DNA of 63,469 nucleotides, filler included, from Collodictyon triciliatum (lineage: Eukaryota), in the NCBI GenBank assembly GCA_043381765.1. It is 12 parts of 12 records of this genome, joined end to end, with 100 filler letters (N's around TTAATTAATTAA, not from the genome) between each part and the next. Parts side by side here need not be neighbours in the genome. Positions count along the whole stretch, not along the records: positions 17,946 to 23,823 come from JBHJMP010004866.1; 11 more parts are not named here. One strand, written 5' to 3'. The position numbers and the translations under genes are program-made. Below, one piece after another: positions 84 through 61,894 of this stretch. Within the stretch, counting starts at the first letter, position 1; each line of letters begins with the position of its first letter. The notes under the pieces are model-generated. The model made no database searches, was not told the DNA's origin, and worked only from the letters and a program-made list of their open reading frames with translations.

Positions 84-3000
84 ATGTTCCGCCCAGCGCG
101 TACTCTGCTTCTGTCAAGGCCGCCCAGTATGTGACCACACTCACCCCACTCACCAACCAACTCACTCACCCCACTCACCAACCGACTCATCAACTCACTC
201 AAAAAAAAAAATGCACACTTCCACAGTCCTCAGCAGCGCACAAACACAGACAAAGACGCAGACACAGACACAGACACTCTTCCTCCGAGGTCATCTCAGC
301 AAACACACGGCAAAAGAAAGCCTTGGCCCACCCCAGCAAACAGCGCTTCAGAGACCATCCTCACGCGCTTTAGACCCTGTTGATATCTTCCTCCCAGCTC
401 GCAGCCGCTTCCAAGGAGCACGCGACTATTTCCTTCAGCTTCTGCGCGCACATCCGTCCACACGAACATCATTCGTCCCCAACAGCCCGCCCGCCACGGC
501 AGAGACCGGCAGCCTGGCGGCCGAGAGAGCGTCTGGGCTCCAAGGCGTGTTTTCAGCTATGGTCCAAAAGGTCTCTGAGAAGCTGCACAGCGCATTTCAG
601 ACAGAGCCCAACATACACAACTTCCGCAGATGGTTTCGCTATGAACTCAGCAGAGGCGCCCCCATGGACTTGACAGAAGTCCTGCGCAAGGCACAAACAC
701 ATCGCCTCCCGCTAAGTATCGAAGATTACAACCGTTTTCTGGCTCATTGCCGCCCTCCGCAGAGTCTTGTTCATGAAAGCGACGACCAAGAAGTGGCTAC
801 ATCCTCATTAAAGAGTCTGTCGGATTCACCCGGGTCCAGTCTTTGCCTCAGTCGCTACAAACCTGGCCAGGCCATCGAAATATACGAGGCTTTAATACAG
901 GACAAACTCGTACCCAATGTTAACACAATGTCACATTTGGTCGCTGCAAGTCAAACAGTAAAAGAATTGCAGTACACACGAGATGTTTTGACAGACAGAC
1001 TCTTCAGTGTTATACGGAACCCGGATGCGATGGAACAGGACAGAGTCATTTTTGGAATCCCGTCAGATGAAATAACTACGACGGCATCTCGTATTCTTTT
1101 GAGCTATTATGATTCGCTGATGGATGATGTTGTTGTCCGTACCGCGGAGCAGGTGGATGACTTGAACTTTGAGCTATTAGCCCGGCATAATCGCAAAAGA
1201 GACTATTTGCAGCTTGCTAAGGAGAGGCAGAACAAACATGAGGACACCTCTAAGGATGGAACACATACAGACGATATGATTCAGAATCCGTACAAAAACA
1301 TCATTTCAAGGATACTGAACAATCCAAACGAATCCTCATTCTTTAAACAGCTCCGTCTGGAAACCCAGGCTTTAGAAATAGCTGCATCTCAGTATAGAGA
1401 GATGGTTCAGGATATGACAAAACGCGGCCAGGCTGCGAGTTTACTACCTGCAAACGAGATAATTGCATCATGGATTGAGCCTCTCAGAAGCGAAATCGAA
1501 AAGGAGCTGCATACTATCTCCAACAAAGAAAAAGATGTTAATAGGCAAATATATGGTCCATTCCTGGGGATGATATCTCCCACAAAGCTTGCAACGATAA
1601 CTGTGCACGAAACTATTGGCTGCATCATGGCTGAGGGTGTTTCGGTATGTCTCTTTTGAAAGTATATTCCATTCTTATCCAATAGAAGAAGAGGAAAAAG
1701 AAAGAGAAATACATAAAGCATCCAACTAACTTTTGATTATAATTATTTCAATATCGTAGCTTTGTATGTCACTTATGTATGGATCAGAGTGAAATATGAA
1801 TAATTTCCTCTCGTTCATTCGCTAAAAAATGTTTCATGTACGATGGAGTAATTAAAAAAAGCACACTATTTTACACAATTCCCTATAGGGTGTAAAAATT
1901 GTGAAGGCTTGTATCACGATAGGGCGAGCTGTACAATTAGAAATCGGCCTCAGAATGATGAAGGACAAAAGGAAGGATAAATTAGTAGTTCCCAGTAGTG
2001 TAAGTGCTCTCAAGCAGCTGGGTTCCAAAAATGTCGGAGAGTTCGCTCCTACCATCTGGGCCAAAGCAATCCAGGCCAAATTGGGTGCCAGTTTGATGAG
2101 TCTTCTTTTAAAGTCTGCTGAGTTTAAAGACGAAAGTGGTAACTTTGTTAAAGCCTTCCGCCACTACTACCACTTCCACTCAATGAGACGCACTGGACAT
2201 ATTACATGCCATAAAAGCCTTTGGGAGAAGTTTTCCGATGGATTTGAACGACAGGTAATTTGATCATTATGTTTTGCTCAAATTATATAAATTGTCCTGT
2301 TTATTTCCTTGTTTCTTTGTTTCTTTGTTTCTTTGTTTCTTTGTTTCTTTGTTTCTTTGTTTCTTTGTTTCTTTGTTTCTTTGTTTCTTTGTTTCTTTGT
2401 TTCTTTGTTTCTTTGTTTCTCTGTTTCTCTGTTTCTCTGTTTCTCTGTTTCTCTGTTTCTCTGTTTCTCTGTTTCTCTGTTTCTCTGTTTCTCTGTTTCT
2501 CTGTTTCTCTGTTTCTTTGTTTCATATATTTATTAATAAATTAAGTAGTTTCCCCCTCATTAATTTGTGTCATCTTACAAATATTTCTGCTTTGAAAGAA
2601 TAGCAAGAAAATATTACCAAATTAATTATATTTTTTTTAAAAAATAATCTTAGGAAGCCCTCCACCCGATATACTTGCCTATGGTGGTTGAACCCAAGCC
2701 CTGGAGCCACGTCAACAATGGGTCGTATCTGACCCTTAGATCCCCGGTGATGCGTTGCCGCGGTTCTCGAGCGCAAATCCAGGAACTCCGAACGTCCGAC
2801 CTGTCAAAATTACATCTGGGGCTCAGTATTCTTGGCAAAACTGCCTGGATTGTCAACGAGCCTGTCTTTGAGGTGATTGAGCGCCTGTGGGATAATGGAG
2901 GAGGGATTGCCGAGCTTCCACCCCGACAAAACTACATCATCCCATCCGAGCCAGAAAACTTTACAGGTCTGTCATTCGAGGAGCGACGAAACTTTATGGC

Positions 3001-4660
3001 CACAAAGAACCGAGTAGAGCAAATGAATCGAGACCTACACTCCAACCGAAGTGGGATCACTATTCGCTTAAAAATAGCCCGTGAGTTTATTGGAACAAAG
3101 ATGTATTTCCCTCATAATGTGGACTTCCGCGGACGAGCCTACCCACTACCTCCGCATCTGAATCATTTGGGACCGGACGTGTGCCGTGGCATGCTACTCT
3201 TTGCTGAGGGAAAGCCTCTTGGAAAAGATGGGCTGCGCTGGATAAAGATCCATCTGGCCAATCTGTGCGGTAAAGACAAGATGTCATTTGACGACCGTGT
3301 CCGGTACGTTGATGAACAGATTCCAAACATCATCGACTCGGCTGAAAGGCCGTTGGAGGGTGGCCGGTGGTGGTTGAGCACAGATTCTCCCTTTCAAGTT
3401 CTTGCAGCCTGTATCGAATTGAGGGAAGCCATCCGAAATCCCAACCCAGAAGACTACGTTTCACGCCTTCCTGTTCACCAAGTAATCCTGAGCCTGAAAG
3501 ACATTGACAGATTGTGTAATCGGATGCTCCCCTCATAATATATTCATCGCTAATAGCCTATTCTGACCCTTGATTGCACTTTTTGTTTGTCTTCTACCTA
3601 CAGGATGGCTCTTGCAACGGCCTCCAACATTACGCTGCCCTTGGGCGGGATTACAGAGGTGGTCTTCAAGTAGGCCTCGTCCCCACCGAAACCCCGCAAG
3701 ACGTTTACCAAGTAAGGCCGCTATTTTTTTCTTCATTTTACATTAATTTTTTTTTTTGGTACTTTCCTATTCATGAATACATTTTACCAGTTATGCATGC
3801 ACTTCAATTTTTCTTTTTCTTTTTTCTGTCATCTTGTGCACTCCCTTGATTCATAAATACATCTCATATATAATAAAAAGGTTGTTGCAGACTCTTTAAA
3901 GGACAGAATAAACAAAATGTCAGAAAAAGGCCTCCCGACTGCTATGCTGCTTAACGGCAAGGTGGAACGCAAGATTGTGAAGCAAACAGTAATGACCAGC
4001 GTTTACGGAGTCACATATATTGGAGCCCGTCGACAAATTCAAAATCGGCTTGAAGAACGAGGAGACATTCCTGAGGACAAACTATACTATTGCGCATGTT
4101 TTCTGGCACGCCACACCTTGGAAGCCTTGGGCGAATCCTTTATCGGTGCAAAGTTAACGATGGATTGGCTTGCGCAGTGCGCACGATTGATTGCATCCAC
4201 CGGTCGCCCTGTATCTTGGGTGACTCCACTCGGAATTCCTATTGTCCAGCCATACCGAAAGTCCAGCAGCGTTCAAGTGAAAACGTCACTCCAACACGTT
4301 GTACTTGCTCTTCACAACGATGATTCTCCGATTATGGCGGGGCAGCAAAGAACTGCATTCCCACCAAACTTTATTCACTCCCTGGATTCCACACACATGT
4401 TTATGACTGCTATCGAATGCGATCGACAGAATGTCGCCTTTGCGGCTGTGCATGACTCGTTCTGGACCCACGCAGGAACGACAAGTACGATGAATTCAAT
4501 TCTGCGCAATCAATTTATCCGCCTTCACTCGGAAGACCTTTTGAATGAGCTAAGGAATCAGTTTATGGTTCTTCATCCTGACATCACCTTCCCGGAAGTT
4601 CCTCCGCGTGGTGACCTGAATCTCGAAATCATTCGCGGTAGCCCCTACTTTTTTGACTAG
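84..4660 (+). CDS. POLRMT: Mitochondrial single-subunit (T3/T7-type) RNA polymerase, 6 exons
   Basis: Exons 84-126, 227-1644, 1889-2254, 2654-3481, 3604-3711, 3881-4660 splice in frame with GT-AG. Motifs: [70 protein letters not shown]-terminal SPYFFD. PPR-like helices in exon 2. Confidence 0.96.
2309..2523. repeat. Intronic compound 8-mer microsatellite (TTGTTTCT)n/(CTGTTTCT)n
   Basis: Direct inspection; lies in a POLRMT intron. Confidence 0.95.
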
Positions 4661-5883: not shown

Positions 5884-5983
5884 NNNNNNNNNNNNNNNNN
5901 NNNNNNNNNNNNNNNNNNNNNNNNNNNTTAATTAATTAANNNNNNNNNNNNNNNNNNNNNNNNNNNNNNNNNNNNNNNNNNNN
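5884..5983. other. Artificial contig spacer N44-TTAATTAATTAA-N44 (also at 11867, 17846, 23824, 29801, 35776, 41751, 47726, 53701, 59675, 62010)
   Basis: Identical 100-nt blocks carrying a six-frame stop linker. Confidence 0.98.
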
Positions 5984-11742: not shown

Positions 11743-12671
11743 CTATTGAATAAAGGTTTATTAACCGCCTTTGTTTGTTTGTTTGTTTGTTTGTTTGTTT
11801 GTTTGTTTGTTTGTTTGTTTGTTTGTTTGTTTGTTTGTTTGTTTGTTTGTTTGTTTGTTTGTTTGTNNNNNNNNNNNNNNNNNNNNNNNNNNNNNNNNNN
11901 NNNNNNNNNNTTAATTAATTAANNNNNNNNNNNNNNNNNNNNNNNNNNNNNNNNNNNNNNNNNNNNTGAATTTAATAAAACAAAGAAAGTTTGGGGAAAT
12001 GAACGGTGGTGGAAAAGAGCAGAGCGATAAACCAATATACATTAGAGGGGCTCCGTCTTCACCGCACATGAGTAAAACAATCTCCGATAGTAATGCCAGT
12101 TGTTGTGTAGGTGGTTTGTGTTGTCTGGTGCTTTATTTTAGGGCCTCAAAATGGAAAATATACGCAGCCGGAGATGATATTTTCCGATGTGAGTCGGCAA
12201 GTAGGCTCAAGCCAAGCAAGTACCCAACCCCACGCGACGGGCCAACAGAGGACATGGAGCCACGCATCCGTGTCCACCCGACCTTGTCAGTATTTCAGTG
12301 TGGGTCTTCGCCCAAGCGCTCACAACACACTTTTTAAGCGGTGTAATTTTTTCTGGTAAGACATGCACACATCTAAACATGCATAAATTCTTTAGAAGCG
12401 ACTGTGCTCCTGTTTATTCGCTCCAAACAGTCAGCTTATCGTTCATGCTAATCAATCGTTAAAGTTTACAGCCCGGGAGGGGTTGTGTAACAGTGATTTG
12501 TTTTCATGATAAGGTGAAGCGAGGAGAAAGGAAACAATGTTGGAAACCACCGGACAGAAAGTAGAGACCTTCCAATTCCACTTTCATGACGTGACCTCCC
12601 ATAGTACGCCACAAGCGCATGAAAGGAGAAAAAGAGGGCTCTACCACAACAACTCTTTGCAGATGCAAACA

Positions 12672-15585: not shown

Positions 15586-17675
15586 TCACCAGTTCATTAT
15601 AAGTTTTGTCATAAACTCGTATGTTACAAAGGTGATGGCGGTGTTGGGAATAGACCTCAGCATGTGAACTCCCATTCCTTGGTAAAGCGCTCGAAAGCCT
15701 TCTTCCTGCACGTCATAATTACAGTCAGATTCACTACCAGCTTCAACATCCCATGGAAAAACACCGGGTGAGCTATCGCACCACCATCGACTTCCACCAA
15801 AATAAATAAACAAATGAATTAAACCCTTACTCTGGCTATTAGTGACGTTGTTTGGAGGAGATTTGTGTATTTGTGAGGCTTCCCAGGTTCGGGAGACCGT
15901 TGTTCACGCAGGCGAGTCCTGATAACCTATACCATATACATCTTGTTAAAAAAAAATAAAAGGGTTTGTTCTATTGTTGGGCTTTGAATTTACCAAAAAA
16001 TTTTTTTATTTTTTTTATTGACAAAGAACCTTCACCAATACATCAAGATTACCTCGTGTGGGTAAATACTAATGCATGCAAGGAACTTTCCAAAGGAGGC
16101 AGAGAGGAATAAATAATTAAGAGATGGGTCTAGTTTTTATAGTTATTATTTTAGGAATAAAAAGGCTCATAAAATAAATACAAAAAAATCATACACCTCA
16201 CCACAACATAAAATGTTATATCATAGCAAAAAAAAAAAAAAAATATTAATAAAAAATACTTGCATTTTACTTTCAATCAAGGATATAACAAAAGAAATAA
16301 TTATAATGAAATTGATGATGTCTAAATATTTCAAGGTACCTTCACCGTACCGAGTCTTATATACGTCTTTAAAAGCCTCATAAACAGTAAATTGTATCGC
16401 ACCCTCCAGATTTCCTTTTGAAACATATGCAATGCATTTGAGATATTATAATAAATAATCTAAAATGCATGAAAAGAATGAAATAAAGAAACTGCCATTA
16501 ATTATTTTGTATATGTTAATTTTTTTCATTTTTATCACATATTTTGATAAATGGGCGCATTCATACAATAAATAATATAAATAATATACATATATGTAAA
16601 TTTGAGTTGAAACTTATGTTGGAATGTAAAGCTGCTTACCGACATATGAAGCTGACAATCCTTTGTAAAACCCACGAATACCTTCTTCCTTATATATCCG
16701 GCGTGTTGCATCCAAAGCACCAATATAGTTGTTCATCGATTTGTTCGAAGTTGCCTATTCAATGCCGAATCAAATATGCATTTTACTAACAAACTCTCAC
16801 CGGATCGTTGCATTAGAGTATCTTTTAGGAAAAAATAACGGGATTTTTCAGGTACATATGATGCTCATGTGTTTTTCTGAGATCTATATTACCATTGCAT
16901 GATTCTGGTTTGTCTGGAGTTGTAGTCTCGTTTTTACTAGCCATACAGGGTTCATTACAGAGGATGATATTGCACCCGCAAAAAACCCCGAAAGTGGGTG
17001 TACATAGTGGGTCCCCCCAAGTGGTGTCGCATTAAGGCGAGACTTAAGAAAGTCGTAACTTGCAAAGTAGACGGACCTACCATCATTAGATTAAGTAAAT
17101 AACAAGGGACGGTCATCATATATAGATTCTCTTCGAATTAAAGAGAAAATGATTACAGAAGTTGCATTTTCTAACCTATGAGGAATGACACCAAATAGAG
17201 TGGCACCGAGTCCCCTCCAAAGACCTCTGATACCTTCTGTTCTCTGAATGTGTCTTATTTTTTTTTTTTAATAAAAAACAACATAAATAACCGAGTAAAT
17301 ATGCGTGGTAAGTATGAAACTGGGTTGATAGACATGTAGCTTCACAGGTCATAATTCTCAATTCGACTCACAATATACACTCTACTAGTTTGCTATTAAG
17401 AGCATATCCCCCCTTCGGTATATCTACAAGGCTTGACTATACAACGGAATAAATTAACAATACGACCTTTATTATTAGTCATGTAAATGTTGTCCTGAAT
17501 ACGAGCGGTGCAATCATAATTTAAAACAAACTATTTTATTTTTGTTTTGTTTTAATGACCGTCGTAATTTTAATATCGGATTCAGATGGCGTAATCCGTC
17601 ATTAAAAAAACCTGCAATCGAGTCTTTACAACTTCCAAGGGGCATGTAACCAGGCAACCAATTGTCCCCCCAATT
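15586..17675 (-). CDS. Mitochondrial carrier, SLC25A33/A36 (Rim2-like pyrimidine nucleotide carrier); 5' truncated
   Basis: Three carrier signatures (TCPLEVVKTRLQ, NPVWLVKTRLQLQ, YPHE|VIRTRLRE) plus EEGIRGFYKGLSASY and RSIPNTAITFVTYE. Confidence 0.9.
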
Positions 17676-17746
17676 CTATGAATCGAGAAGAGTAGTTACA
17701 TTTTCATAATTATTCAGATTTGCAGAGATGTTCAAAATCATTTTTT

Positions 17747-17845
<99 letters not shown>

Positions 17846-18064
17846 NNNNNNNNNNNNNNNNNNNNNNNNNNNNNNNNNNNNNNNNNNNNTTAATTAATTA
17901 ANNNNNNNNNNNNNNNNNNNNNNNNNNNNNNNNNNNNNNNNNNNNAACAATACTAATAACAATACTAATAACAATACTAATAACAATACTAATAACAATA
18001 CTAATAACAATACTAATAACAATACTAATAACAATACTAATAACGATACTAATTATAGAATGAC

Positions 18065-21000
18065 TTTTTTAGATTCTTGCAGACAACTCCTATATTATTG
18101 TATGATATTGCTAGCAATGGATGTGTTTCTCCAATAACTTTGCATTTTATTTCCATGGACTTTTGATAATATTCCAAAGCCTCTTGGTATCTAATAATTG
18201 TAAAATAATATATTAATTCACGCACTCATGGCCCCTCTATCCTCACATTTTTAACAATACAGGGGTTCTTTCTTTCTTTCTACCTCTCAAAATTATCATA
18301 TATGCCGGCTATATTCCCGTAGGAAGTTGCGACGTCAATATGGTCTGGGCCGAAAACTTTCAGGCGAATCTTCAACGAAGCTTCTTGGTTTTCCAAAGCC
18401 TCATTATTCCTGGTAATAAGATTCCTTAAAAACACGACCAGGGAGTTCACTCTCAATTGTTATACGTATTTTACATTTCAAGATTGATGTACACTGATCC
18501 AATTCTCCCATATGAAGCTGCAACTTCAGGATGATATTCTCCAAATAGTCTCATGGATATTTGAAGAGATTTTTGAAAGTAATCAAGGGCAGTTTCAAAC
18601 CTGATGATTAATGTGATGCAAAGGTAAGTATTACCAGCCCAGTCTTATCATATAATCGAGTGCAGATACTTACAACGGTGCAATTAGATTTCCTGCACAA
18701 AATTGAAAGAAAGAATAAAAAAAAAACAACGGTGCCATTGGATATTATTTAAATGTAATTAGCAAAAGACTATCGCAAAAAATAGGGATTTTGGTGTTGG
18801 TCATACTTTCCTTTAATCTTATAAATCATTCCGATGTTGTTGTACGAGCGCGCAACATCAGTGTGCTGCTCTCCATATAAACAAGTATGAATTTCTAGAG
18901 ACTTTTGGTAGAACTCCAGGGCCTTATCATACCTGCGAATATTAATGGAGATTGGCTAAAATATTGTCCATAGCTTCAGTATTAAACAAAGATGCTCATT
19001 GAAATATAAAAACAAAATAAAAACAAAATAAAAACAAAATAAAAACAAAATAAAAACAAAATAAAAACAAAATAAAAACAAAATAAAAACAAAATAAAAA
19101 CAAAATAAAAACAAAACCAAAAGAGAAAATAGTAATATTAGATAGACAAATCGGCCACGCAACATACTTCCCGAGGTTTTCGTAGACATTTCCGATATAC
19201 TTATATGATTCAGCCGTGGTGGGATGATGCTCTCCAAATAGACGGGTTCCAGCATGAATAGCTTTACTCAGTATATCAATCGCCTCATCATATCTGTTAT
19301 GATATTTAAATTGTATCAACTGGTTGATAAAAATTTGGCTAATAAAAAAAAGAATAATACATATGCGTAGTACTGTGTCATACTTTGCCAATTGGTTCTT
19401 TGCATAGCCCAGGATATTGTAGTCTTGCAATTTGGACTCTGGATAGATTAGTATTTAGTTTTGGTAAGTCAGTCACCTGAAGAGATATCGTGCTTACAAA
19501 AAAAATTTCAATTAGGAATTATGATTGGCAAAGTTCTTAAAACCTTCTTTCTCATTCACCAATATACGATACTCCAGGATTGGCACAAGATAGTTATTTT
19601 CCTGTAGCTCATGAAAATATTTAACAAGCATCGAACCCGCAACGGTCAGTTCCTGTTTACAGAATATAGATTGTTAATGCATGAACATTCCAGGATATCG
19701 TTCTCTGTGATATCTCAGAGATTCATGGGCATTATTAAACCTTGGCAGCGTCCCGGTATGCTTCCAAGTGGTCATAACCATTCTTATTCAGCAGCCTCCA
19801 ATACTCGAAAAAATCATATCTATGGAAGCCATCCAGCATTTGAGTAACAACCTGTAAAGATTTTGGTCAGTATCTACCCAAAAAAATATTGTTGGTAATT
19901 CCATCTGAATACAAATGAAGCATTATGTACCGGGTAAACAAAGAGTTACATTTTATACAAAATTGATGCTATGGGATGAAGTTATTGTTTTTTTCTTTCC
20001 TTCGCATCATTCAATAAGAATAAAAGCAAAATACCGCATCTCGTTTAAGAAAACCGGCCAAAATATCAAATTGCTTCGAGAGTGCTAGGGTCCGGCATAT
20101 TTCTGCGGTTTCGGCTTTGTTGGCTGGCTGATTTTCGTATTCACAGTACAACCAGCTTGCATACTCTTCAATCTCTTCATTCTTGAACTTTTCATCCTCA
20201 AAGTAATATTGCTCGATTGATTGGGACACCAATTGATGGAAAAATGTATACCTGGGTTCAACTTATTAAAAATAGCGATCGATGGACAGTTTATTTCAAT
20301 GTCTTAAAAACCTTCCGTTTCGCACAAACAGTGACTCTAGAAGGACGAACAAAAATGGTTTCCTGTGTGATTGTTTGTATCTATTCAGCTATGGAGCTCT
20401 GCTGCGTTTGGCGAGTAGATATTATATCGGATTTCAAAATTAAACCTCAATTTCAATGTGCCTACCATATTGTCATCTGAAGGGGTCGAGCTATTTTTTT
20501 CAGTCTGTACTCCACATACCTGTCGAGTTCATTTTCACTCAAACCAATATGAGAAACTTGCAAAACGCAGCACGAGGTTCGCACAAGGTTTAAATCTGCA
20601 ATGGTAGTTGGAATTAAAATGAAACGTAAATGTTTCCACTTTTCTTTCTTTTATAGAACCCAGCGAACGTGATTGTATTTCCACTTAACGTTACCGTATT
20701 TTGACTCCCAGCGATTCAAGATGAGAGTGTAGAGTTCGACGACTCCGTTTGTCGAAAGCAACTGAGATAGTTCGAGATCAACTTTTTCATACACCCCGAA
20801 TACACGGAGTTCATCCAGAACTAGTCTCAAGTAAAGTGGATGCCCTATATCGAGTTAATAGGATGTTTAAGTGAGGTAAGGAACCCTAGAAAAAATCTTT
20901 TTCTGTATCCATGTATCAAAAGAGGTGCCTGTATTCTCTTTGTCATCCACGATTGTAGTCAACTGCCCTGGGGTTAGTGTTTTGTTGAAACGATTTAGAA

Positions 21001-23650
21001 AGGAGTGGGTTGCTTGCAATATTCCGGCCTCATCGAGTTTTGATACGGAGATGATATTTGAGCCACATAACTTCGCAGCCTTTTTTTTTTTAATTAGATA
21101 ATTCAATGATTTCAATTAGTAGCTATTTTGAATTCAATTATTTTTGTACCAAAATCATTTCTCCTTAAATTTGTACGTACGGCACAGGAGTCGTGTTGGT
21201 CGATTGTAGAAACCACGATAGCTATGTTCTTTGGAGTCTTTTTCGGAAGCCAGTGAAGCTGTTGCACGTTTGGATACCCTTTTGTACTCACAAGCTGATT
21301 TACAGCATCAATCACAACCACAATGGATTTCTTTCTGGTTACAATATTGATGAACCGAGTGACATTAAAAATAAAAAGCAACAATACGCCAAAAAGAAAA
21401 TTAATGGGAACCCCATGATGTTTCCATATGCATTTATTACCGCGTTTATAATGATTTTTTTTCAAAACTGAGCTTGGAAATTACGTTTTTTCGGAGGCAG
21501 TTTGGAACAAATGTCCGAAACCGTTCTTTGCAAGCACCCTGCCTTTATAACAGAAGAAAATAAAAAGAAAAGTAAAGGATAATAAGCATGGTTTTCTTTG
21601 AATTGTGAATAAGCATTTGAATCCAAAAGAAAAGATTTTTTTATTCAAAACCTTCTTCGGAGTCTGCAGTGTGAGGCAGTATCCCAGCTTCGTTGAGAAT
21701 ACGAATAAAGCGTTCCATAATGCTATGATTCAAATATAGAGTGAATGGAAAGGGCATCTTTTCTTTTCTGTTTTTTCTTTCGTAAAAAAGGTACATCATA
21801 TCCATTAATTCTATGGGACATATTACAAATACGTACTTCTCAACATAGTTACTCATATTCGAACACCCTACGAAGTGATGAAACACAAGATGGTTGGATG
21901 GCTGCACCGTGCTTAAGTCACGTACAAGCCCACACATTATAGATGACTTTCCGATTCCTGATTCAGCACCGATTACAGTAATGGTAGAGTCATCAGCAAC
22001 GATTTGAGATTGTACATCTTTTTTCAACTGCGCTAGTAATTCATCGCGTCCCTCTAGGCCAACTAAGCGATGTCTTATGAACTGGTCATGCGCCTGGTCT
22101 TCAGCATTTTTGACCTAATAAGCGCCATGTTATTTACATAGATGGATTCTATGTGATTTCCGTTTCGATAGATTGCAATATCAGAGACAAATGGCTGAAG
22201 TGCTTCAAGCACCGAGTAAAAACCTCATTCATTGCAAAGTCCGTATCGATGCATCCAAGAAGGGCCTTCGTGACTGTACTGATTAAATCCTGTGGTGTCT
22301 TGTAGACTTTTATGGTATATTTCGCTGATATTTTCTCTTTCAATAACTTTTGCCGATGACCCTGCAACCAAATGGAAAAATATGACATCGATGGGATATA
22401 GTTCCATTCATGGCAAATACACATTTTGTTATATATATTTGGTGATTGTATGGAGGGTAATAATATTACATCCTCGGGATTGGCTGGGCGGTAGAGTTCC
22501 CTCTCCCCGTTGTTTTCTGCGACATGCTTCACAGCGTATTCCTCATCACGCGAGAAGAAAAAAACCCTTCGCGCAACAGGAGATTCCTTCAATGCTCCAT
22601 GTATAATCTGAAAACGAAAAGGTTTTTTTTCCCATAAAAAAGAGAGACAATTCAAAAAATGAGAAAATGTTCCAAAACCCAGGATTACATACATGGATGC
22701 AATAAAATATCACACTGCTGGGTAAACTTCTCGAGAAGCTTTTGTTTGATCAAAACAACATTTCAAACCTCATAATCAGTAACGCTCAAACCACGCATAT
22801 ATGTAAGGAACGGATACTTTGTGTCAGTTTCTGTGTGCCACTCCTTGGGATTTTCGTGATTTGGAATCCAGCCATATCTCGCACCAAGAGTGCAAAGAAA
22901 ATACGGGCACTTATCAATTGATTCCAAGCAACTTACAACAACCTGTTTGAATGAAGAATGTATCAAATAAAATCATGGAACACATCGCAGACATAGAGAG
23001 CTCGGTATGTAATAATGCCACTTTTGAGCATAGAAAGGCACATGGCGTATTACCAGTCCGTTGTTCGAAACTTCGTTTGTTAATCCCCATCGCAAGTCGA
23101 TGAAGACAAGGATTAAGTTCTTTGTTTTTGCGTGTTCTTTTAAGCTTCAGATATTTTTTTATTTTAGTATTAGATACGCAAATATTATTTTTCAAGCGGT
23201 GGATTCTTTCAAGGTCTGCATGAATTCTTTTTTCTCATCTATGCAAGATTAATGGAAATCAAGAAAAAGAAAAAGAAAAAGAAAAAGAAAAAGAAAAAGA
23301 AAAAGAAAAAGAAAAAGAAAAAGAAAAAGAAAAAGAAAAAGAAAAAGAAAAAGAAAAAAAGAAGAAAAAGAAGAAAAAGAAGAAAAAGAAGAAAAAGAAG
23401 AAAAAGAAGAAAAAGAAGAAAAAGAAGAAAAAGAAGAAAAAGAAGAAAAAGAAGAAAAGATTTAAGCTCACAGCTTCTCAGCACTCCTAAAAAACTCGTT
23501 GCGCTCTTTCTGCATGTCACGAAAAGTGGACGACAGAAAGACACGCAGCACACGGTCCTCCTGCACAGACTTCCAACCAGGAGACCCGTCCGAGTATTTT
23601 GCAGCTGAAGTCATTGTCAACAAAGAGTCCTTGGCAGGGGAGCGATCCAT
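18065..23650 (-). CDS. DUF4062-NACHT/STAND NTPase-TPR protein (NPHP3/TTC41-like, NLR-like); 3' truncated
   Basis: N-terminal LRVFLSSTFRDMQKER and CLESIDKCPYFLCTLGARYGWIP (DUF4062). Walker A GAESGIGKS, Walker B VVVIDAVNQL, HPLYLRLVLDELRVFG. At least five 42-aa kinesin-light-chain-type TPRs. Confidence 0.92.
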
Positions 23651-23923
23651 CTCTAGGCGCAGGGTTCTACAGGCAGTTGTGCGAGTCAGAGTGTCAAAGA
23701 GAAAAGAAAAAAGAAAAGAAAAAAGAAAAGAAAAAAGAAAAGAAAAAAGAAAAGAAAAAAGAAAAGAAAAAAGAAAAAAAAAAAGAAAAGAAAAAAGAAA
23801 AGAAAAAAGAAAAGAAAAAAGAANNNNNNNNNNNNNNNNNNNNNNNNNNNNNNNNNNNNNNNNNNNNTTAATTAATTAANNNNNNNNNNNNNNNNNNNNN
23901 NNNNNNNNNNNNNNNNNNNNNNN

Positions 23924-29800: not shown

Positions 29801-30163
29801 NNNNNNNNNNNNNNNNNNNNNNNNNNNNNNNNNNNNNNNNNNNNTTAATTAATTAANNNNNNNNNNNNNNNNNNNNNNNNNNNNNNNNNNNNNNNNNNNN
29901 ACAAAACAAAAACAAAACAAAACAAAACAAAACAAAACAAAACAAAACAAAACAAAACAAAACAAAACAAAACAAAACAAAACAAAACAAAACAAAACAG
30001 ATCAACAATAAGGAATAGTTTAGGGAAAAAAGCGATAAAAAATACTTTTATCTCAAAAAAACCAAGGGGCTATCCCTTGGCCCCACTATCGATATGCTCT
30101 GCCCTACCGACTCAGTTCTAATGGCAACCTCTGCACATTCCAGCGACAAGGACGCAGCTCTAC

Positions 30164-48076: not shown

Positions 48077-49984
48077 GCGGACATGGTGGCCTTGATTTAG
48101 GAAGACCAAAGACACCAGGCATTCAGAAAAATGAAATCAAGACACCTGAGAATAGAAAGTCTCCTTCTCAAACACCGAATGATGATGATGATAATGATGA
48201 TGATGATAATGATGATAATGATGATAATGATGCAGATATTGACGAATTGGAAAATGGTATAAATGAATTACACCAATATTCTTTAAATTTTTTTATTTTA
48301 GAATAGAAATAATATGAAATAATATCTCTGTGATATAATAATCTTAGCAATCTATATTGCTTTTTTTTTAAAAATTTTTTAGTATATATTGTTCTGTCGG
48401 TAATGAATGCTACATTATTATTAAATATCTAAAAAAAAAAAACAAATACCCTTTATAATAGGAGGGGATATGAGTGATACAGATTTAAGTAACATAAGCG
48501 GTTTAATTATTGACACATCATTTCGTGCAAAAGATGAGGAATTGTCTCCATATGATGAAACTTTCAAACAATTCATTCCCATGCAAAAATACAATCCTTC
48601 ATGTGTCTGGACCTGCGATGCTAAGGGGGTTATTGGAGTACCTCTCTTCCAAGGGGAATTATGTCCTGCAGAAACAACTTGTGAATTTGAAAGAAAATCT
48701 GACAATTTAAAAAAACACAGTGTTGGTAATTGCATTGATGAGAAACAGTTTATTTGCTCACTTCCATACAACGAGGATTGCAGTGGGTATTCAATCAACT
48801 TATGGACTTTAAGCGTGAACACCACCAAAGATAAACTCTCTTTAGATTACACACTCCTGGTGATTAGCGAGTCAAGACCATTTGCTATTTACAGCATTTA
48901 CGAAGAACATGTTTCTCCTGTTGTAACAGTAAACTCCTTCTTTCTCCCAGTTATATATGAAGAGAACGATTGCAATATCCTTTATTGTGTCTTTGAATAC
49001 GCTCATTTAATCGTTATTGAAGAAAAAGCCATACCTGGAGATATTTCATATGTCTATTGCCCAGTTCCGAAGACAAAAACCCTACCAAACTTTCTTCGAC
49101 TGACCTACAACCACAAAATCTTCAGCCATCCATATCCGTTCCGTATAACACCGATGATGAATCACCTCCCAAAGGTGAAACTGACTATTTGTGCAATCGT
49201 TCGCGGAGAAGGGTATAATTTACACGAGTGGTTGGAATTCCACTTAATGATGGGCTACAAACGATTTGTTCTATACGACAATAATCTGGAGCCCGACACT
49301 GTAATGGAAGATATTGCGATGGTTTACCGCGATGTTGTGATTATAGTTCCATGGAAATACAGACATACCCAATCTAATGCACTTACTGACTGCGCCATTC
49401 GCTATGGAGGCCAAACTGATTGGATGAGCTTCATCGATGTGGATGAGTTTATGATTCCACACCCAAATTACACAGATGTATCTAGTGTCTTAAATGACAG
49501 GTTTTCAAATGTTCCGTATATCTCGAGTTACTGGCTCACTTTCGGTCCGTGTGGGGAGGAAGAAAAATCACCAGGAGAATTGACAATGTCTATGTGCAGG
49601 TCAACCACTTTGGCAAAAGGTATGAAGCCAATGCCAAAGCCAACATTCCAGCCAAAGGACGTGGCTGGGATTCAGGGATTTAGCCCACATGTAGTGCGAC
49701 TCAAGAAGGATTTAGGCATCAAGGCTATTAGTAAAAGTGAAAAGACGAATGAATTGCTGCAGATATACCATTATCGCTACCGAACTTGGCCCGAATTCCA
49801 TCGTCGTAGACTCGGAGACACCGCAGCACGAACCATCCACCGAAGTGAAAAGGATGTTCTTCGAATGTGGACTGCAGCCAAAAAATCGCTCCAGCCTCTG
49901 CCCGACTCCGATAATGCAATCTTAAAATATATTCCTACTCTGAAGCAACGAATGAACGAAAGGATACCTGATTCTGTGTTCTAA
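48077..49984 (+). CDS. Glycosyltransferase family 92 / DUF23-like; 5' truncated
   Basis: Exons 48077-48256 (Asp-rich stem) and 48462-49984; LTICAIVRGEGYNLHEWLEFHLMMG..FVLYDNN and WMSFIDVDEF (DxD). Confidence 0.88.
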
Positions 49985-53914: not shown

Positions 53915-54130
53915 CAAAACAAAACAAAACAAAAAAACATCATCAAAACATCAATACGAAAAATAAGAAGAAAAAAACAAGATGAAACAAAATGAAACAA
54001 AATGAAACAAAATGAAACAAGAGAAAAGAAAAAAATACACACAACCAAGACCCGTGTCCGCGTTTTCTCCACGCAGATTTCGCTCCTTCCAAACACCCAC
54101 GGTTCCCTACCACAGCACACTTGCCATAGA

Positions 54131-57100
54131 ATGGCGAACCTGAGACCCAGCAAAGAGGACATGATCCGACAAATCATGGAGATCGGCTTTTCCCGGGAGC
54201 ATGCCATAGTCGGTCTTGAAGTCACGGGCGGAGACGATCCCGACCACGCAGTCGAGTATCTCATGCAGATTCTGCCCATCCAAGAGGAAGACATTCCACA
54301 ACCCGTTTCTGCCCGCGGCCTTGGCGAGCCTGTCAGTCTCTTGCACGACTCTGGATTTCCTGTGCGCCCCTCTGCCAACTCGGCCTTGCAGCCATCGGCA
54401 AATCCTGGTTATTTTTATGTTTATATACAAGTTTGATTCTATTTCAGGTAGAGAGAGAGAGAATGGAAAACTACGATAATAAAGTATTCACTCATCCATA
54501 AAATTAAGTAATTCCCAGTCATACACAAACTCGTCGTCTTCTTCTCACCCAACCATGAACTGCATATCATAACTTGTAACCTGAAAGATGAATATTTTTT
54601 ATCGGTTGTTTCATTATTAAGTCGCAACCACCTTTTCGTACTTTTTTTTTTTCCAAAAGAAATAACCACAACAAAAAAAAAAAAAAAACTGCTACAACAA
54701 CCTCATGCACCTGCCTCTAAACTACTATGGTTTTCCCTTAATCTTGGTCTACCCAAACAGAGAGGACAAAAAGGCCAGATATGTCTGTATCAACAAAGCA
54801 ACAGCCGCCAATAGAGTTTGTGTCCGCAGCACCATCTCCCCAGCAACAAAAGCAGCAGGTTCAGTTGCAGATGGAACGGCCACTTACACAGACAGGATCC
54901 AATATTCGTACGCATCTTGGACAAGGAAACCCTTTGCCATCCCCCAGAGCAGAGGCAGCGACCATGTATCTACCCGAAGCAGCTCGCGTACAGATGAAAC
55001 CAGAGCCTCGGTATGAACATTCACATCCAATCTCCACAAACCTTGAATCTATCCCCGATGCAGCTCAATCCACGCAAACGCAGTCACAAATACCATCACA
55101 AGGACAAATGCAAGCTCAATTGCAGAACCCTGCTGTTGCTACAACAACAACTACTACTACGAGAGCAAACACTATTTGGTCTGTTCCAATTGACTCAAAT
55201 CACGCTGAGAGCTCGGCAACACCGAATCGACCCAATGCCACACTGGAAGGGCCTGCCCGAATCACCTCATCTAGCGACTGGATTTTCAAAGACATCGATC
55301 TCTGGGACGATGCAGCAAATGGCGACCTCGAGATTTTCAAACAACACTTCCAAAAACTGAACATTGATGTGGATTCAACTAACACAGATGGGCTCACATT
55401 ACTCCATATATCTGCTTACTATGCAAATCCAGATATTGTTGCCTACTTGCTCCAAAAAAAGGCCCATGTCCACGCCAAATGTGCTCGTGGAAACACACCA
55501 TTGATATACGCGCTGAAAGGAAAGATCGACCTCAGCCCAATATCCCCTCAGCATGGCCAGCACTATGTTGTTGTGATTGCACTTCTAGAATCGCATGCTC
55601 GGCTCGATATAAGCAACGACGAGGGCGTCTCTCCTTTGCACCTGGTCACTCTATGGCCAACCACTGATGTGGATTTGCTGGAAACATTCTTGGACATGGG
55701 TGCTGTCGTGCAGCAGAGCGATCACCAAGGACAAACACCTCTCCACTTTGCTGCAGACTGCGGTAATCTGCTTGCAGTCAAAACTCTGCATTCCAACAAT
55801 GCGGTCATCTCTGCCAAAGACTTTAATGGACAATTCGCACTGCATTTGGCAGCTGCACAAGGCCATCAAAAGGTGGTAGAGTTTCTACTCATGGTTGGGG
55901 CCGATCCGAATGTCCAGGATGTTGACGGAGAAACGCCACTTCATCGTGCATGTCACAACGGGAGATACTCAGTTGTCTCCACACTTTTACGTGCATCAGC
56001 AGATGTGCATGTGTTTTCCAAAAGGAACAAAACTGCCTTTCAGATCGCAAAGGAGAAGCAGCACACGGACATATTGCCTCTCTTTTACGACCGCTTTCAA
56101 CCAGCAGCAGATACACCAAAACCTTCAGGCACTGTGCAAAGTCAATTCAAATCTCCAGCTTTCGCCAGAAGCTCGCTGCAAGCAAATGGGCAACCTTCAC
56201 CCTTATCTACCTCCATAGGCCAACCATCAATCCAAACACCTGCACAAGCAACTGCTTACTCAGCATCGCAACCATCAAATGTCACTTCACAGCTAAGCTC
56301 GTCACNNNNNNNNNNNNNNNNNNNNNNNNNNNNNNNNNNNNNNNNNNNNNNNNNNNNNNNNNNNNNNNNNNNNNNNNNNNNNNNNNNNNNNNNNNNNNNN
56401 NNNNNNNNNNNNNNNNNNNNNNNNNNNNNNNNNNNNNNNNNNNNNNNNNNNNNNNNNNNNNNNNNNNNNNNNNNNNNNNNNNNNNNNNNNNNNNNNNNNN
56501 NNNNNNNNNNNNNNNNNNNNNNNNNNNNNNNNNNNNNNNNNNNNNNNNNNNNNNNNNNNNNNNNNNNNNNNNNNNNNNNNNNNNNNNNNNNNNNNNNNNN
56601 NNNNNNNNNNNNNNNNNNNNNNNNNNNNNNNNNNNNNNNNNNNNNNNNNNNNNNNNNNNNNNNNNNNNNNNNNNNNNNNNNNNNNNNNNNNNNNNNNNNN
56701 NNNNNNNNNNNNNNNNNNNNNNNNNNNNNNNNNNNNNNNNNNNNNNNNNNNNNNNNNNNNNNNNNNNACAACAAACTCCAATCACACCAACGGCATATAT
56801 CCCTGCTTCAGCAACAGGAGCATCCAATACGACAGCAGGCCCGATATCACAGCTTCCTCAGCAGGTAAGCTATATGCAGTCGCCAGGGGTGAACACCGTT
56901 CAAGCACCTGTATCCACTGCTATGCCGCCACCTTCGCAAGATTATTTCCCTCACAGGCCCCCAGCGCCTCTTGATTTCAAAGCCGTCCCATCCCCAAGTC
57001 GACCGCGTATATTTTGATTACTCAATTTTAGTTCTGCTTTGTTTAGATACTAATTAACCAATTTATCAACCAATATATATATATATATTTATTGCTATCA

Positions 57101-59007
57101 TTGGCCATTGTATAAGTGTGAAATAAAAATGCCAGTAATTAAATCACTGCATGAGAGTTGTAACGCCTGACTCATGAATTTCTATCATTATTTATCATCC
57201 TGTCGTTCTTCATACCAGCAACAAATCATATGTACCAAGGTATGGATGAATCGCCAGGCAAGAAAATAAATGCCAATACTGCTGCTAAACCAGAGGAACG
57301 TAGAACTCGTGTATGAATCCTGAATTATTTTCTATTAAAAAAAAAAGGACTCATACACTTATGATTTTTCAATCTGTTTCTATGAGTACACAAAATCCTA
57401 CTGTATTTAGTCTGAATGTGAGAGTTAAAAAAATTATTTTTTTCTTTTTGTCCATCGCCCTTTAACTTTTTTTTTATCTTTCTTTTCCTTCATTCAGTAT
57501 AACAAACCATTTCTGGTAATTGTACCGAGACAATAAAAATTTAAATGCGCAGTCCCAACCACAATCACAAGACTATCTCCGAGCAACAAATACTCACGTA
57601 CCCGTAACAACAAACGTGGAATTTAGGTATTCATTATCCTCTCCTCATTTTTCTTCGATTGTAGCACGTTTTCTTTGCAAAATAGATACCCTAGCATGTT
57701 TTTGCATTTTTTTGAATGATTTAACTTTATGATGATTATAATTCGATTATGATTATGATTATGATTCGATTATGACCCTTCATACTTTATCATTTTGCAT
57801 GTCTTTTTTTTATTTTTGTTGTTGACACCCAAAATGGGTTTTAAGTTTGCATTTTGACATTATTCTTTCTGTCATAATATATGAAGTGAGCTTTGGTTGG
57901 GTCCTCTCATTGGAAGCGGAGAATTCGGAGAAGTTTTTAAGGGTAGATACAAGGATCAAGTTGTGGCCATCAAGAAACTGAAAGTTTTGGCAAATTCAGA
58001 GAGTGTTCAAAGAGATTTTTTCAATGAAGTCGAGATACTTAGGTTTGGTACATATATTACGGTGTTGATGTTGTTTCCTTTCTCCCTTTCTCCTTTTCTT
58101 CATATGATGGGATATGGTATGGAATCTTGTTGTATAGGTTATGAAAATGAGTTAGAAAAGTATTATTGTTATAGTTGTTATAGTTATAGTTATTGTTATT
58201 GTTGTTATTATTGTTATTATTGTTATTATTGTTATTATTGTTATAGTTATTGTTATAGTTATTGTTATAGTTATAGTTTTTAAAAAAAGGGAATACAACA
58301 TGTGAAAACAGTCAACCGACTACTTACGAAGTGTGCCTAATAGGAGGGTCAGCCATGAAAACATTTGTCGGTTTATTGGTGCTTGCCTTAAGGCTCCAAA
58401 CCTTTGTATGGTATCTGAGTTCTGTGAAAGAGGAAATTTATTTGAACTACTTCGAACAGTCGAAGTCAAGCAAAATCCCCAGTTGAGAATAAATATTGCT
58501 GTTCATATTGCAAGGGCTATATGCTACTTGCATGAGAACAAACCACAAATATGTCATCGAGATTTGAAGAGTCTTAACGTTCTAGTAAGCTGTGGCTTTA
58601 TTATTGAATTCTCATCACCAAATAGATACATGATTATTTTACATCGCTGATGGTCACATAGCAACATTCAAAATTCATATATATATATATTGCTTATCAT
58701 AATTTCCACTGCAATTGTGGGCAACAAGGTCGACCTGTCCTGGAGTGCAAAGGTAACAGATTTCGGTATGGCAAAAGTACGGCAGCATGCATACACAACC
58801 AATTATCAAACAAGATGCGGAACACCTGCTTGGATGGCTCCCGAAGTTCTTCAGGGAAGGTTAGTTCTTTGATTTTGAGACATTCAGTCACATGGCTGAC
58901 TACTATTTTACACCTAATACCTTCCTATATTTATTTTTTGAATATTCATTTCCTTTATTTCCGTATTTCCACACTTCCTTATTTATTTACCTATTTAACC
59001 ATTTGTC

Positions 59008-60003: not shown

Positions 60004-61894
60004 ATGGAATATGGTTCATTCACGAACGAATACGGGTAAGCAACCCATTTACTATCTTAATCTGACTTATGACACCCAATAGAGATTACAAGTAAAATTC
60101 AATCCAATCTCATGCTATCGAATGCAATCCGTTCCAATGAAATCCAACAATTCTTTCAATACCCTCCGCGGGATGAACGCCACCCAATTGAGCCAGAGAA
60201 ATACAGATGCGTTCAAATAAGATATCGAATATTCATATAAAAAACATGTTTGTAAATAACTTAGCTACGGGGACGAAGGTCCAGACGGCTCTACCCCCAA
60301 CAGCAGTGAAAACAAGCCCAGGATTCTATTGATGGGATTAAGAAGGTTTTTTTTTCGATCTCAGAACTGTGATGTTTCATTCCCCTCATTGATGGGGTTA
60401 TATCCATGCAATCGACCAATATCGATGTTGTAAATGTTGCGACGCAGAAGCTGATGAACTGATTAACTCAAGTGAATGATTCGTATTTCTCTGTGTATGT
60501 TTATTTGATTTACAATATCTGTTACAACCACATCAGGAGCGGTAAATCCAGTATTCAGAAGGTTGTCTTTCAGAAAATGTCACCCAACGAGACCCTTTTC
60601 TTGGAAACTACTCAGAAGATTATCAAGAATGGTATTATTTGTTCGATAATAAAATAATATTTATTTTGCAAACAGACCCCTCTTTGTACAGTTATATATT
60701 AATCATAATCCCCACCCTACGGAATCACCTCATGCTTATTTACTGCTCCACTTCATAATGCTTACTTTTATCCATCATCACTGATTGCCTCTATCTATCG
60801 AAATAGACATATCAAACAGTTCATTTGTCCAATTTCAAATCTGGGATTTTCCTGCCCAAATCGACTTTTTTGACCCTGCCTTTGAAGCTGAAGCGATATT
60901 CGGAGGCTGTGGAGCTCTCATCTTCGTCATCGATGCACAAGATGACACCACTGAGGCTCTTGCGAAGCTAAATCAGACGGTCGTTAAAGCTCATAAGGTA
61001 ATCAGGACAGGGCTACAGCTAATAGCAACCTTGCTTTTGAAATTCTCTAAATTTGAGTACAGCCATAATAATAAATATTACAAACATCACCAGGTGAATC
61101 CCAAGATTACGTTTGAGGTCTTCATCCATAAAGTTGATGGCCTCTCGGATGACCATAAGATTGGTACTGTTGGAAATGCATCCGTATATTTATCATTCTC
61201 TTAATATCTTGTCAACAAGATATCTTTCCATTAATGAAAAGCTTATTTTGAACGAATATTTTTGCTACTGAGAGTAGAGATACAAAGAGAAATTCAGCAG
61301 CAGGCCACAGATGATTTGAGTGATAGCAACCTTGAATCAGTGCAGCTCAGATTCCATCTCACCAGGCTTGTTTGATAATAATTCCTTATATTTTCGCCTC
61401 CTTAAACATCAAGACCTTTTTCGTTTTCTTGTATTTATTTTCTTTTTTTTCTGGGATCGCCTCATGAATTAAGAATAAAAAAACCCAAAGAAAATTAATG
61501 ACAAGATACCTTCCTCACACACAGCATTTACGACCACTCTATTTTCGAAGCTTTCAGCAAAGTCATCCAAAAATTGATTCCTCAACTTCCAACTTTAGAG
61601 CGCCTACTTGACATCCTCGTTTCTGTATGCTTTCTTTTTTCTCTATTCTTTTCCTTCCACGATATCTTGTCAGCTATAAAATAATTCTATGTCGTTTGCC
61701 AACTATAACTGTTTTTTTTTTTTATTTTTTTTAATAATATCTTTCTATCAGAGCTGCCGATTGGAGAAAGCTTTCCTTTTTGATGTCATCAGCAAGATTT
61801 ATATTGCCACAGACAGCTCACCTGTGGACATGCAGAGCTACGAATTGAGTTCTGATATGATTGATGTCGTCATCGATATCTCTTGTATCTATGG
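60004..61894 (+). CDS. RRAGC: Rag C/D GTPase (Gtr2); 3' truncated
   Basis: [75 protein letters not shown] over 8 exons. Confidence 0.95.

Follow-up and report, generated by a model that had tools for sequence, protein, structure and literature searches.

What kind of gene carries five consecutive exons of exactly equal length, each encoding one period of a repeat, and are such exons the parts of a device for making variable receptors or the trace of an old duplication? The question is raised by a gene on the minus strand of a 63,469-nucleotide (nt) stretch of Collodictyon triciliatum DNA (the window, by which we mean that whole stretch); its product joins a DUF4062 head and a NACHT-type NTPase module to an array of tetratricopeptide repeats (TPRs). 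An earlier note on this DNA had suggested that the repeat exons may be the basis of combinatorial diversification, a reading that the tests below do not support. The explanation that we favour, with a probability of about 0.7, is an old family feature: a DUF4062-NACHT-TPR gene, one of an expanded NLR-like STAND family, whose repeat exons stem from ancient exon duplication and are constitutively spliced, in a diphylleid-like CRuMs flagellate.

18065..23650, minus strand: DUF4062-NACHT-TPR gene, 22 exons and 961 codons, stop not reached before the contig end
17946..23823: the contig that bears it, 5.9 kb, with a linker on either side and no other gene

The repeat region comprises exons 17-22.

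19384..19438, minus strand: exon 17, 55 nt, carries helix A of the first TPR; phase 2 at its 3' end, where AA precedes the junction and GTATGA follows it
19168..19293, minus strand: exon 18, TPR unit 1, 126 nt, phase 2-2, TPR_12 28.6 bits, acceptor confirmed by RNA
18807..18932, minus strand: exon 19, TPR unit 2, 126 nt, phase 2-2, TPR_12 37.4 bits
18475..18600, minus strand: exon 20, TPR unit 3, 126 nt, phase 2-2, TPR_12 33.0 bits, donor confirmed by RNA
18284..18409, minus strand: exon 21, TPR unit 4, 126 nt, phase 2-2, TPR_12 31.0 bits, acceptor confirmed by RNA
18065..18190, minus strand: exon 22, TPR unit 5, 126 nt, phase 2-2, TPR_12 33.8 bits, GT donor at 18064

The 126-nt TPR exon pattern is real and specific. 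The five consecutive exons stand on the minus strand where the earlier note had placed them, each with AG before it and GT after it, and the full gene model bears out phase 2 on both sides of all five; unit starts are exactly 42 residues apart, and four of the five exons score above the Pfam TPR_12 (PF13424) cut-off of 30.1 bits, with exon 18 (28.6 bits) below it. As a control, we took the 80 metagenome loci whose TPR units are most similar (query P0027, whose own contig is outside the 80); all 80 were contiguous open reading frame (ORF) arrays, with 653 units, none of which had AG..GT at the equivalent positions. Metagenome loci L042 (18.5 kb), L030, L038 and L046 carry intron-free TPR_12 arrays of 19-21 units each, L042 holding 55 units over five ORFs.

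Because residues 1-14 of the exon correspond to positions 17-30 of the TPR_1 model and residues 27-41 to positions 1-15, each exon comprises helix B of one TPR, a linker and helix A of the next. The description of one repeat per exon therefore stands in the sense of one 42-amino-acid (aa) TPR_12 period each, and fails for the canonical 34-aa TPR, with which the exon is out of register. Variation had also been thought to centre on the residues around an SY pair; we found that only 7 of 41 columns are the same in all five units and that variation is spread over the whole unit. Since exons 18-22 are all symmetric (2-2) and exon 17 ends in phase 2, skipping or duplicating any of the five keeps the frame; the architecture thus permits in-frame exon loss, gain and skipping, as had been reasoned, which is sound as arithmetic and is not evidence of occurrence, and the present data do not indicate that any of these occurs.

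Five repeat exons is a lower bound, because the array runs into the end of the contig: the donor of exon 22 leads into a (TATTAGTATTGT)n microsatellite and to the end of the contig (17946), read-through would append KSFYN followed by a stop, and the nearest homologues have about 95-130 further C-terminal residues beyond the window model. The introns of the TPR region are 65, 90, 93, 206 and 235 nt long and share only T-rich low-complexity matches.

18998..19129, minus strand: T-rich microsatellite of 11-nt period, within the intron of 235 nt that separates TPR exons 18 and 19

GTATGA is found at the start of exon 19 and of the introns after exons 17 and 19, and the intron after exon 18 starts with GTATGT. 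Coding sequence just past the junction mimics a donor site, which may bear on the presence of introns at the same place in every repeat.

The relatives of the gene show that it belongs to a family. A phmmer search with the 92-aa P-loop exon as query returned 16 matches among 1.84 billion representatives. Of these, 12 have EukProt names, each from a different Trinity gene of Diphylleia rotans (EP00002); the matches lacking a EukProt name are short ORFs on contigs from NCBI, JGI or Logan. Nine named full-length relatives were looked up and all were transcripts of D. rotans (CRuMs). Because these nine are D. rotans proteins, and the relatives there come from at least 12 Trinity genes, both a gene family and a protist host are supported; that this is a protist gene, as previously supposed, is most likely right. 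Pfam finds DUF4062 in four of the nine, TPR_12 arrays in seven and NACHT, NPHP3_N, nSTAND1 or AAA_16 in all nine. Alignment of the window model with P0025 runs end to end (943 columns, 43.5% identity, 823 bits), as it does with P0021 and P0023; identities are 41-46% over 586-943 columns for P0025, P0021, P0023 and P0005, and 35-40% for P0003, P0007 and P0013. These proteins, the nearest relatives found, share the domain order and the 42-aa TPR_12 arrays of the window gene, the number of units varying from about 4 to 10 per protein; they differ in being from another species, as paralogues or orthologues, and in being transcripts, so that their exon structure is indirect. The window gene itself is not among the genes of that D. 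rotans transcriptome.

Environmental ORFs bear on that exon structure. The short ORFs P0001, P0010, P0011 and P0033, which we did not count as paralogues in this genome, end, or change in character, immediately past NYV[ED], which is the end of exon 6 in the window, and this points to the same phase-2 intron site in environmental relatives. Among proteins of near lengths, a search with the five-unit profile returned three JGI ORFs, with P0027 resembling a single-unit exon ORF, and the P-loop exon returned a single Logan ORF (P0033) that stops at this same exon boundary; among longer proteins, the P-loop exon search found none. A metagenome scan with exon 14, from the helical domain, gave 505 pattern matches, none of which was confirmed.

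The gene model was built from ORFs, splice sites, RNA joints and alignment with the family. We found that two runs labelled 'RNA?' (X3 and X4) hold spliced contigs, whose sequences come from close relatives, and that 12 of the 21 model introns fit these contigs (ends CT..AC, that is, GT..AG on the minus strand). The intron at 18410-18474, between the third and fourth of the five TPR exons, is matched by a spliced joint in record 9 of X3; that at 19294-19383 is matched by a spliced RNA joint, which confirms the acceptor of the first TPR exon, and the joints 19293>19384 and 19438>19544 are present in both X3 and X4. A DNA contig from a freshwater metagenome (X1, record 1) spans 18225-18494 unspliced with one mismatch, and the runs that contain fragments of the gene's contig are freshwater and lake metagenomes. 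The gene is live, since its reading frame is intact through all 22 exons (at least 961 aa, no internal stops) and the listed differences from the X3, X4 and X1 contigs are mostly synonymous: among the 22 exonic differences listed, 15 are synonymous and 7 non-synonymous, with a further 22 outside that list.

Two exons in the middle of the model owe their boundaries to the family alignment.

20929..21079, minus strand: exon 10, donor GC (20928-20927) rather than GT
20312..20362, minus strand: exon 13, 51 nt, encodes KPFLFVLLESLFVRNG and restores the W-K-S-F-F-F..VRNGR block

The GC-AG intron at 20845-20928 (minus strand), between exons 10 and 11, has the sole non-GT donor among the 21 introns. 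It is the only donor for exon 10 that gives an in-frame join, and the product, ENTGHPLYLRL, aligns without gaps to [TS]GHPL[YF]LR in 10 of 12 D. rotans homologues, the other two reading GHALYLR (P0004) and GNPLYFQ (P0026). Inclusion of exon 13 closes a gap of 35 residues in the family alignment, and the match to P0025 improves from 769 to 823 bits; a donor at 20520 we regard, in view of that alignment, as false. A 108-nt intron at 22362-22469 (minus strand) keeps the frame open (36 codons) and is retained in an X4 contig from which the next intron has been spliced out; we treat it as an intron because all three indels of that contig, and its ten listed base differences, fall inside it. Joints at 18717>21545 and 18723>22662 were discounted, lying in a T-rich low-complexity stretch with sides of only 21-22 nt. 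A further joint, 22903>23505, occurs in both X3 and X4 with non-canonical ends (CG..GC) and would remove 163 coding nt; it is possibly a diverged paralogue with an unaligned middle.

From the N terminus to the C terminus, the domains follow in the order DUF4062, a NACHT/NPHP3_N-type P-loop module, a helical/winged-helix region and the TPR_12 array.

22470..23650, minus strand: DUF4062/NIR/TeTIR TIR-like domain, exons 1-4 (23650-23472, 23144-23054, 22942-22769 and 22607-22470)
22769..22771, minus strand: putative catalytic Glu codon, E of SVTDYE, last codon of exon 3, assigned by transitivity via P0005
21837..22114, minus strand: exon 6, where the NTPase module starts; Walker A motif GAESGIGKS at 21944-21970
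21181..21334, minus strand: exon 9, with Walker B-like IVVVID(AVNQ) at 21307-21324; Pfam NACHT 14.0 bits

Pfam DUF4062 (PF13271, cut-off 24.7) matches exon 3 with 28.6 bits and exon 1 with 21.3 bits, and homologues with 38-51 bits. The D. rotans protein P0005 matches PDB 11gz_A, the structure of the TEP1 TeTIR domain, with an E value of 3e-18; the window's own exons reach 0.06-0.08 only. We fixed the numbering of 11gz_A by three residues that the TeTIR preprint literature names, R908, R954 and R976; these are arginines at chain positions 15, 61 and 83 and place E1008 at position 115. TEP1 E1008 aligns with the E of SVTHYE in P0005, and the same column reads SVTDYE in the window protein, in which equivalents of the TEP1 catalytic Glu, R908 and R976 are all found. 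The STFRD arginine, an RWG loop and GARYGW are present as well, and STFRD, RWG and GxRYGW are conserved across the family; the catalytic Glu is retained by the window protein and by all 12 aligned D. rotans relatives.

In the NTPase module, GAESGIGKS fits the Walker A consensus GxxxxGK[ST], and IVVVID is a hydrophobic strand ending in Asp, as in Walker B, followed by AVNQ and not by the classical NACHT G-x-D-E. The pattern hhhhD[AG][VIL][ND]Q occurs in 12 of 13 rows (the window and 11 of 12 D. rotans proteins, with P0031 reading DGVDL); DA[VI]NQ occurs in about 11 of the 13, with DG.. in P0025, P0026 and P0031, the first two of which still fit the looser pattern. Scored on separate exon pieces, exon 6 gives nSTAND1 20.7, AAA_16 17.0, NACHT 16.1 and NPHP3_N 13.6 bits, all below cut-off on the fragment (NACHT 26.7, nSTAND1 27.1, NPHP3_N 24.8). 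Full-length homologues do pass, P0006 with NACHT at 35.4, P0009 with NPHP3_N at 30.7 and P0004 with nSTAND1 at 33.5 bits. Since each window fragment is below cut-off, assignment to the NTPase family comes from these full-length relatives; Atlas neighbours carry NPHP3_N. Pfam scans of the exons and homologues contain no family of leucine-rich repeats (LRRs), the repeats being TPRs, and the gene is NLR-like by architecture only, not a canonical NACHT-LRR NLR. The DUF4062 matches, the Walker motifs, the homologue domains and the match to the TEP1 structure uphold the proposal of an NLR-like gene on a DUF4062-NACHT backbone.

How, then, did one period come to fill one exon? Most simply, an ancestral exon-plus-intron unit would have been tandemly duplicated to give the array. 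An alternative that we consider unlikely is that an intron-free multi-unit TPR block, of the kind seen in bacteria, was inherited and introns were later inserted in parallel at one and the same site in every repeat. The control loci, all 80 with intron-free arrays, fit such an origin, as do the boundary AA/GTATGA, which resembles the gene's donors, and the two introns that start with GTATGA like the next exon. It is also consistent with the finding that the units of one protein resemble one another no more than they resemble those of paralogues: among 36 well-aligned units, drawn from the window and from seven D. rotans proteins, identity reaches 63% at best and the mean identity is 37% within proteins (76 pairs) and 37% between them (554 pairs). 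However, the introns share no sequence that would mark an inserted element, and at least five independent gains in identical phase and at an identical site are less economical than duplication, although at this divergence both histories lead to the same present-day picture.

Duplication leaves the question whether the exons are still being moved. It is quite improbable, in our judgement, that symmetric exons form a working cassette system, by which the diphylleid family would diversify through exon gain and loss among paralogues or strains and through skipping or termination at unit boundaries, independently of brown algae, on another STAND backbone and in another eukaryotic supergroup. Exons 17-22 are all phase 2 and each combination keeps the frame, the D. 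rotans family is multi-copy with differing unit numbers, and brown algae share the 126-nt design with alternative splicing reported, in the parts of these papers available to us (PMC3341825, PMC11378527). Nevertheless, pairs of the five exons are only 41-57% identical in nucleotide sequence, with third codon positions 21-38% identical against a shuffle mean of 27%, which is saturation, and their introns are unlike one another. At this one locus, a five-unit profile run over six-frame ORFs of at least 25 aa across the whole window found no further or decayed TPR units besides the five. An internal indel of a multiple of 42 aa was seen in none of 14 D. rotans isoform pairs (Trinity ORFs sharing 90% clusters), and none of the joints listed at the TPR exons, where X3 and X4 cover is thin, is an exon-skipping joint; the joints seen are constitutive ones. 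In the pieces on TPR exons, the contigs of X3, X4 and X1 disagree with the window at 1 of 390 nt, compared with 82 of 1914 nt elsewhere in the gene, a weak comparison drawn from few tool-selected pieces and including some intron sequence in the larger set, and it gives no hint of fast-evolving TPR exons.

The isoforms at unit boundaries bear on both readings. Trinity isoforms that end at a boundary, or pass there into unrelated sequence, are P0008, P0019, P0020 and P0012: three shortened forms stop precisely on a boundary between units (..DDQRK, ..GAMKR and ..NQTGR), and a fourth diverges two residues after one. They can be counted for a cassette system, and if they are real products they would represent receptors cut short after an integral number of repeats. 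Such ends are just what a retained phase-2 intron at the same site would produce, which argues that the exon design is common to D. rotans and hence old. We find no evidence of a working combinatorial cassette; the TPR exons appear to be spliced constitutively, and the available tests point to an old, stable arrangement.

A third explanation, which we doubt no less, gives the protein a housekeeping role as a nephrocystin-3/TTC41-type scaffold of the flagellar apparatus or of another machine, with the TPRs as a fixed binding platform; in its favour are weak NPHP3_N matches (13.6 bits for the window exon, 21-36 bits for homologues), TPR_NPHP3 matches below the cut-off of 100, the NPHP3_N label of the Atlas neighbours, the high conservation of the covered TPR exons among close relatives and the fact that the organisms concerned are flagellates. 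Against it, NPHP3 has lost the catalytic Glu and is inactive, according to the available part of a 2026 TeTIR preprint, whereas the window protein and 12 relatives keep it, and a single conserved scaffold would call for fewer than the 12 or more diverged Trinity genes that one species has.

We therefore return to the old, constitutively spliced family gene, against which several points have to be set. RNA confirms one of the four introns between TPR exons, and the RNA contigs cover neither exon 19, exon 22 nor 20494-20885, nor is there RNA cover of the GC-donor intron. The window's own NACHT pieces, at 16.1 and 14.0 bits, fall short of the family's cut-off. Because units are at most 63% identical and unit-by-unit identity matrices of the window against the seven D. 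rotans proteins show no diagonal, positional orthology cannot be separated from old shuffling. The isoform pairs come from another species, and skipped forms could be missed among them. Finally, NADase activity of the head and an immune role are suggested by analogy, as is ligand sensing. By that analogy, drawn from PsAvs2 in bacteria and TEP1 in humans, a ligand would bind to the TPR array, the NTPase module would oligomerise in a nucleotide-dependent manner and the DUF4062 head would cleave NAD+.

The layout of the window sets the context in which the gene can be read. The window is a chain of about 11 contigs, each of about 5.9 kb, in falling order of size.

5884-5983, 11867-11966, 17846-17945, 23824-23923 and 29801-29900: linkers, starting at 5884, 11867, 17846, 23824, 29801 and onward, 100 nt each, composed of 44N+TTAATTAATTAA+44N

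Linker spacing falls from 5983 to 5974 nt and is then 2335 nt. Because the linkers join unrelated contigs, genes across a linker are not neighbours and synteny is meaningless. Microsatellites form most contig ends in the stretch. Other genes of the window are the following.

16887-17700 (approximate): mitochondrial carrier gene, across the linker from our gene, on a separate contig
2654-4657, plus strand: phage-type single-subunit (mitochondrial) RNA polymerase, two long exons; Pfam RNA_pol 125 and 317 bits, RPOL_N 53
48425-49981, plus strand: glycosyltransferase family 92 domain (67 bits) in a 519-codon open frame
53996-54433, plus strand: exons of a UBA-domain protein, on its own contig
57885-58647, plus strand: exons of a Tyr/Ser-Thr-type protein kinase, on its own contig
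60785-61201, plus strand: exons of a Gtr1/RagA-family GTPase, on its own contig

An Rfam scan of the stretch gave zero matches, and PADLOC gave a single weak match of 11.7 bits.

The two halves of the gene's design each have precedents, which we cite here from the available portions of the sources. In Ectocarpus, 13 of 24 NB-ARC-TPR loci have TPRs built from 42-aa exons, and 124 exons of 126 nt were analysed (PMC3341825, 2012), so the precedent that had been invoked for this locus is accurate; alternative splicing of the NB-ARC-TPR genes in brown algae is cited as Teng et al. 2023, Plant J, in PMC11378527. These genes resemble ours in having a STAND NTPase followed by a TPR array, a 42-aa period per 126-nt exon and a multi-gene family. 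They differ in that ours has a NACHT/NPHP3_N-type module and a DUF4062 head and a CRuMs flagellate rather than a stramenopile host; NB-ARC is absent from the Pfam matches of the window pieces (E up to 1) and of the nine homologues (E up to 0.001). An origin independent of that in brown algae is plausible because the nucleotide-binding module differs, being NACHT/NPHP3_N-type rather than NB-ARC. The hallmarks of shuffling in brown algae are inactivated intronic exons, positive selection and splice variants; at the one locus studied here, we met with neither closely related exons nor decayed units. Equal-length symmetric phase-2 exons with one period each also link the gene to the arrays of ROCO LRRs (72 bp, phase 2, in brown algae), gonadotrophin-receptor LRRs and Dscam (PMC11378527), from which it differs in that the ROCO and Dscam repeats are LRR or Ig and alternative splicing is documented for both.

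For the head, three 2026 bioRxiv preprints (10.64898/2026.09.21.753143, 10.64898/2026.05.01.722283 and 10.64898/2026.09.04.749371) describe DUF4062 (NIR/TeTIR) as a TIR-like NADase that is the effector of the bacterial defence proteins PsAvs2 and Swarozyc and is active in human TEP1, with catalytic glutamates at TEP1 E1008 and PsAvs2 E108; one of them reports that most eukaryotic DUF4062 proteins are NLR-like with the domain N-terminal, and one that NPHP3 has lost the catalytic glutamate. Mammalian TTC41, NPHP3, NWD1/2 and TEP1 and bacterial PsAvs2 and Swarozyc are of the same kind as the window protein, namely DUF4062-NACHT-repeat NLR-like proteins. With TTC41, NPHP3 and PsAvs2 it shares a DUF4062 domain directly upstream of a NACHT-type ATPase and C-terminal TPRs; judged from the alignment, it also appears to share the catalytic Glu and Arg positions of TEP1, and it differs from NPHP3 in keeping the Glu.

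We found no publication on DUF4062-NACHT-TPR genes in diphylleids, though supplementary files to the papers on brown algae and on DUF4062 may include D. rotans proteins or the phases of TPR exons. The 126-nt TPR-exon design is thus already known from brown algae and DUF4062-NLR-like proteins from the 2026 preprints, and the gene adds a member in an understudied lineage. At present it is a parallel in gene structure rather than a demonstrated mechanism, and as such a second example, outside brown algae, of receptor genes with one repeat per exon. CRuMs flagellates are a deep and barely studied lineage, in which an NLR-like family with a NADase-type head would fit the 2026 view of DUF4062-STAND sensors across eukaryotes. 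Were variation at the level of exons to be shown, the family would bear on how receptor diversity arises without somatic recombination; and if the device is real, symmetric repeat exons would be a recurrent route to variable intracellular receptors in organisms without V(D)J-type systems.

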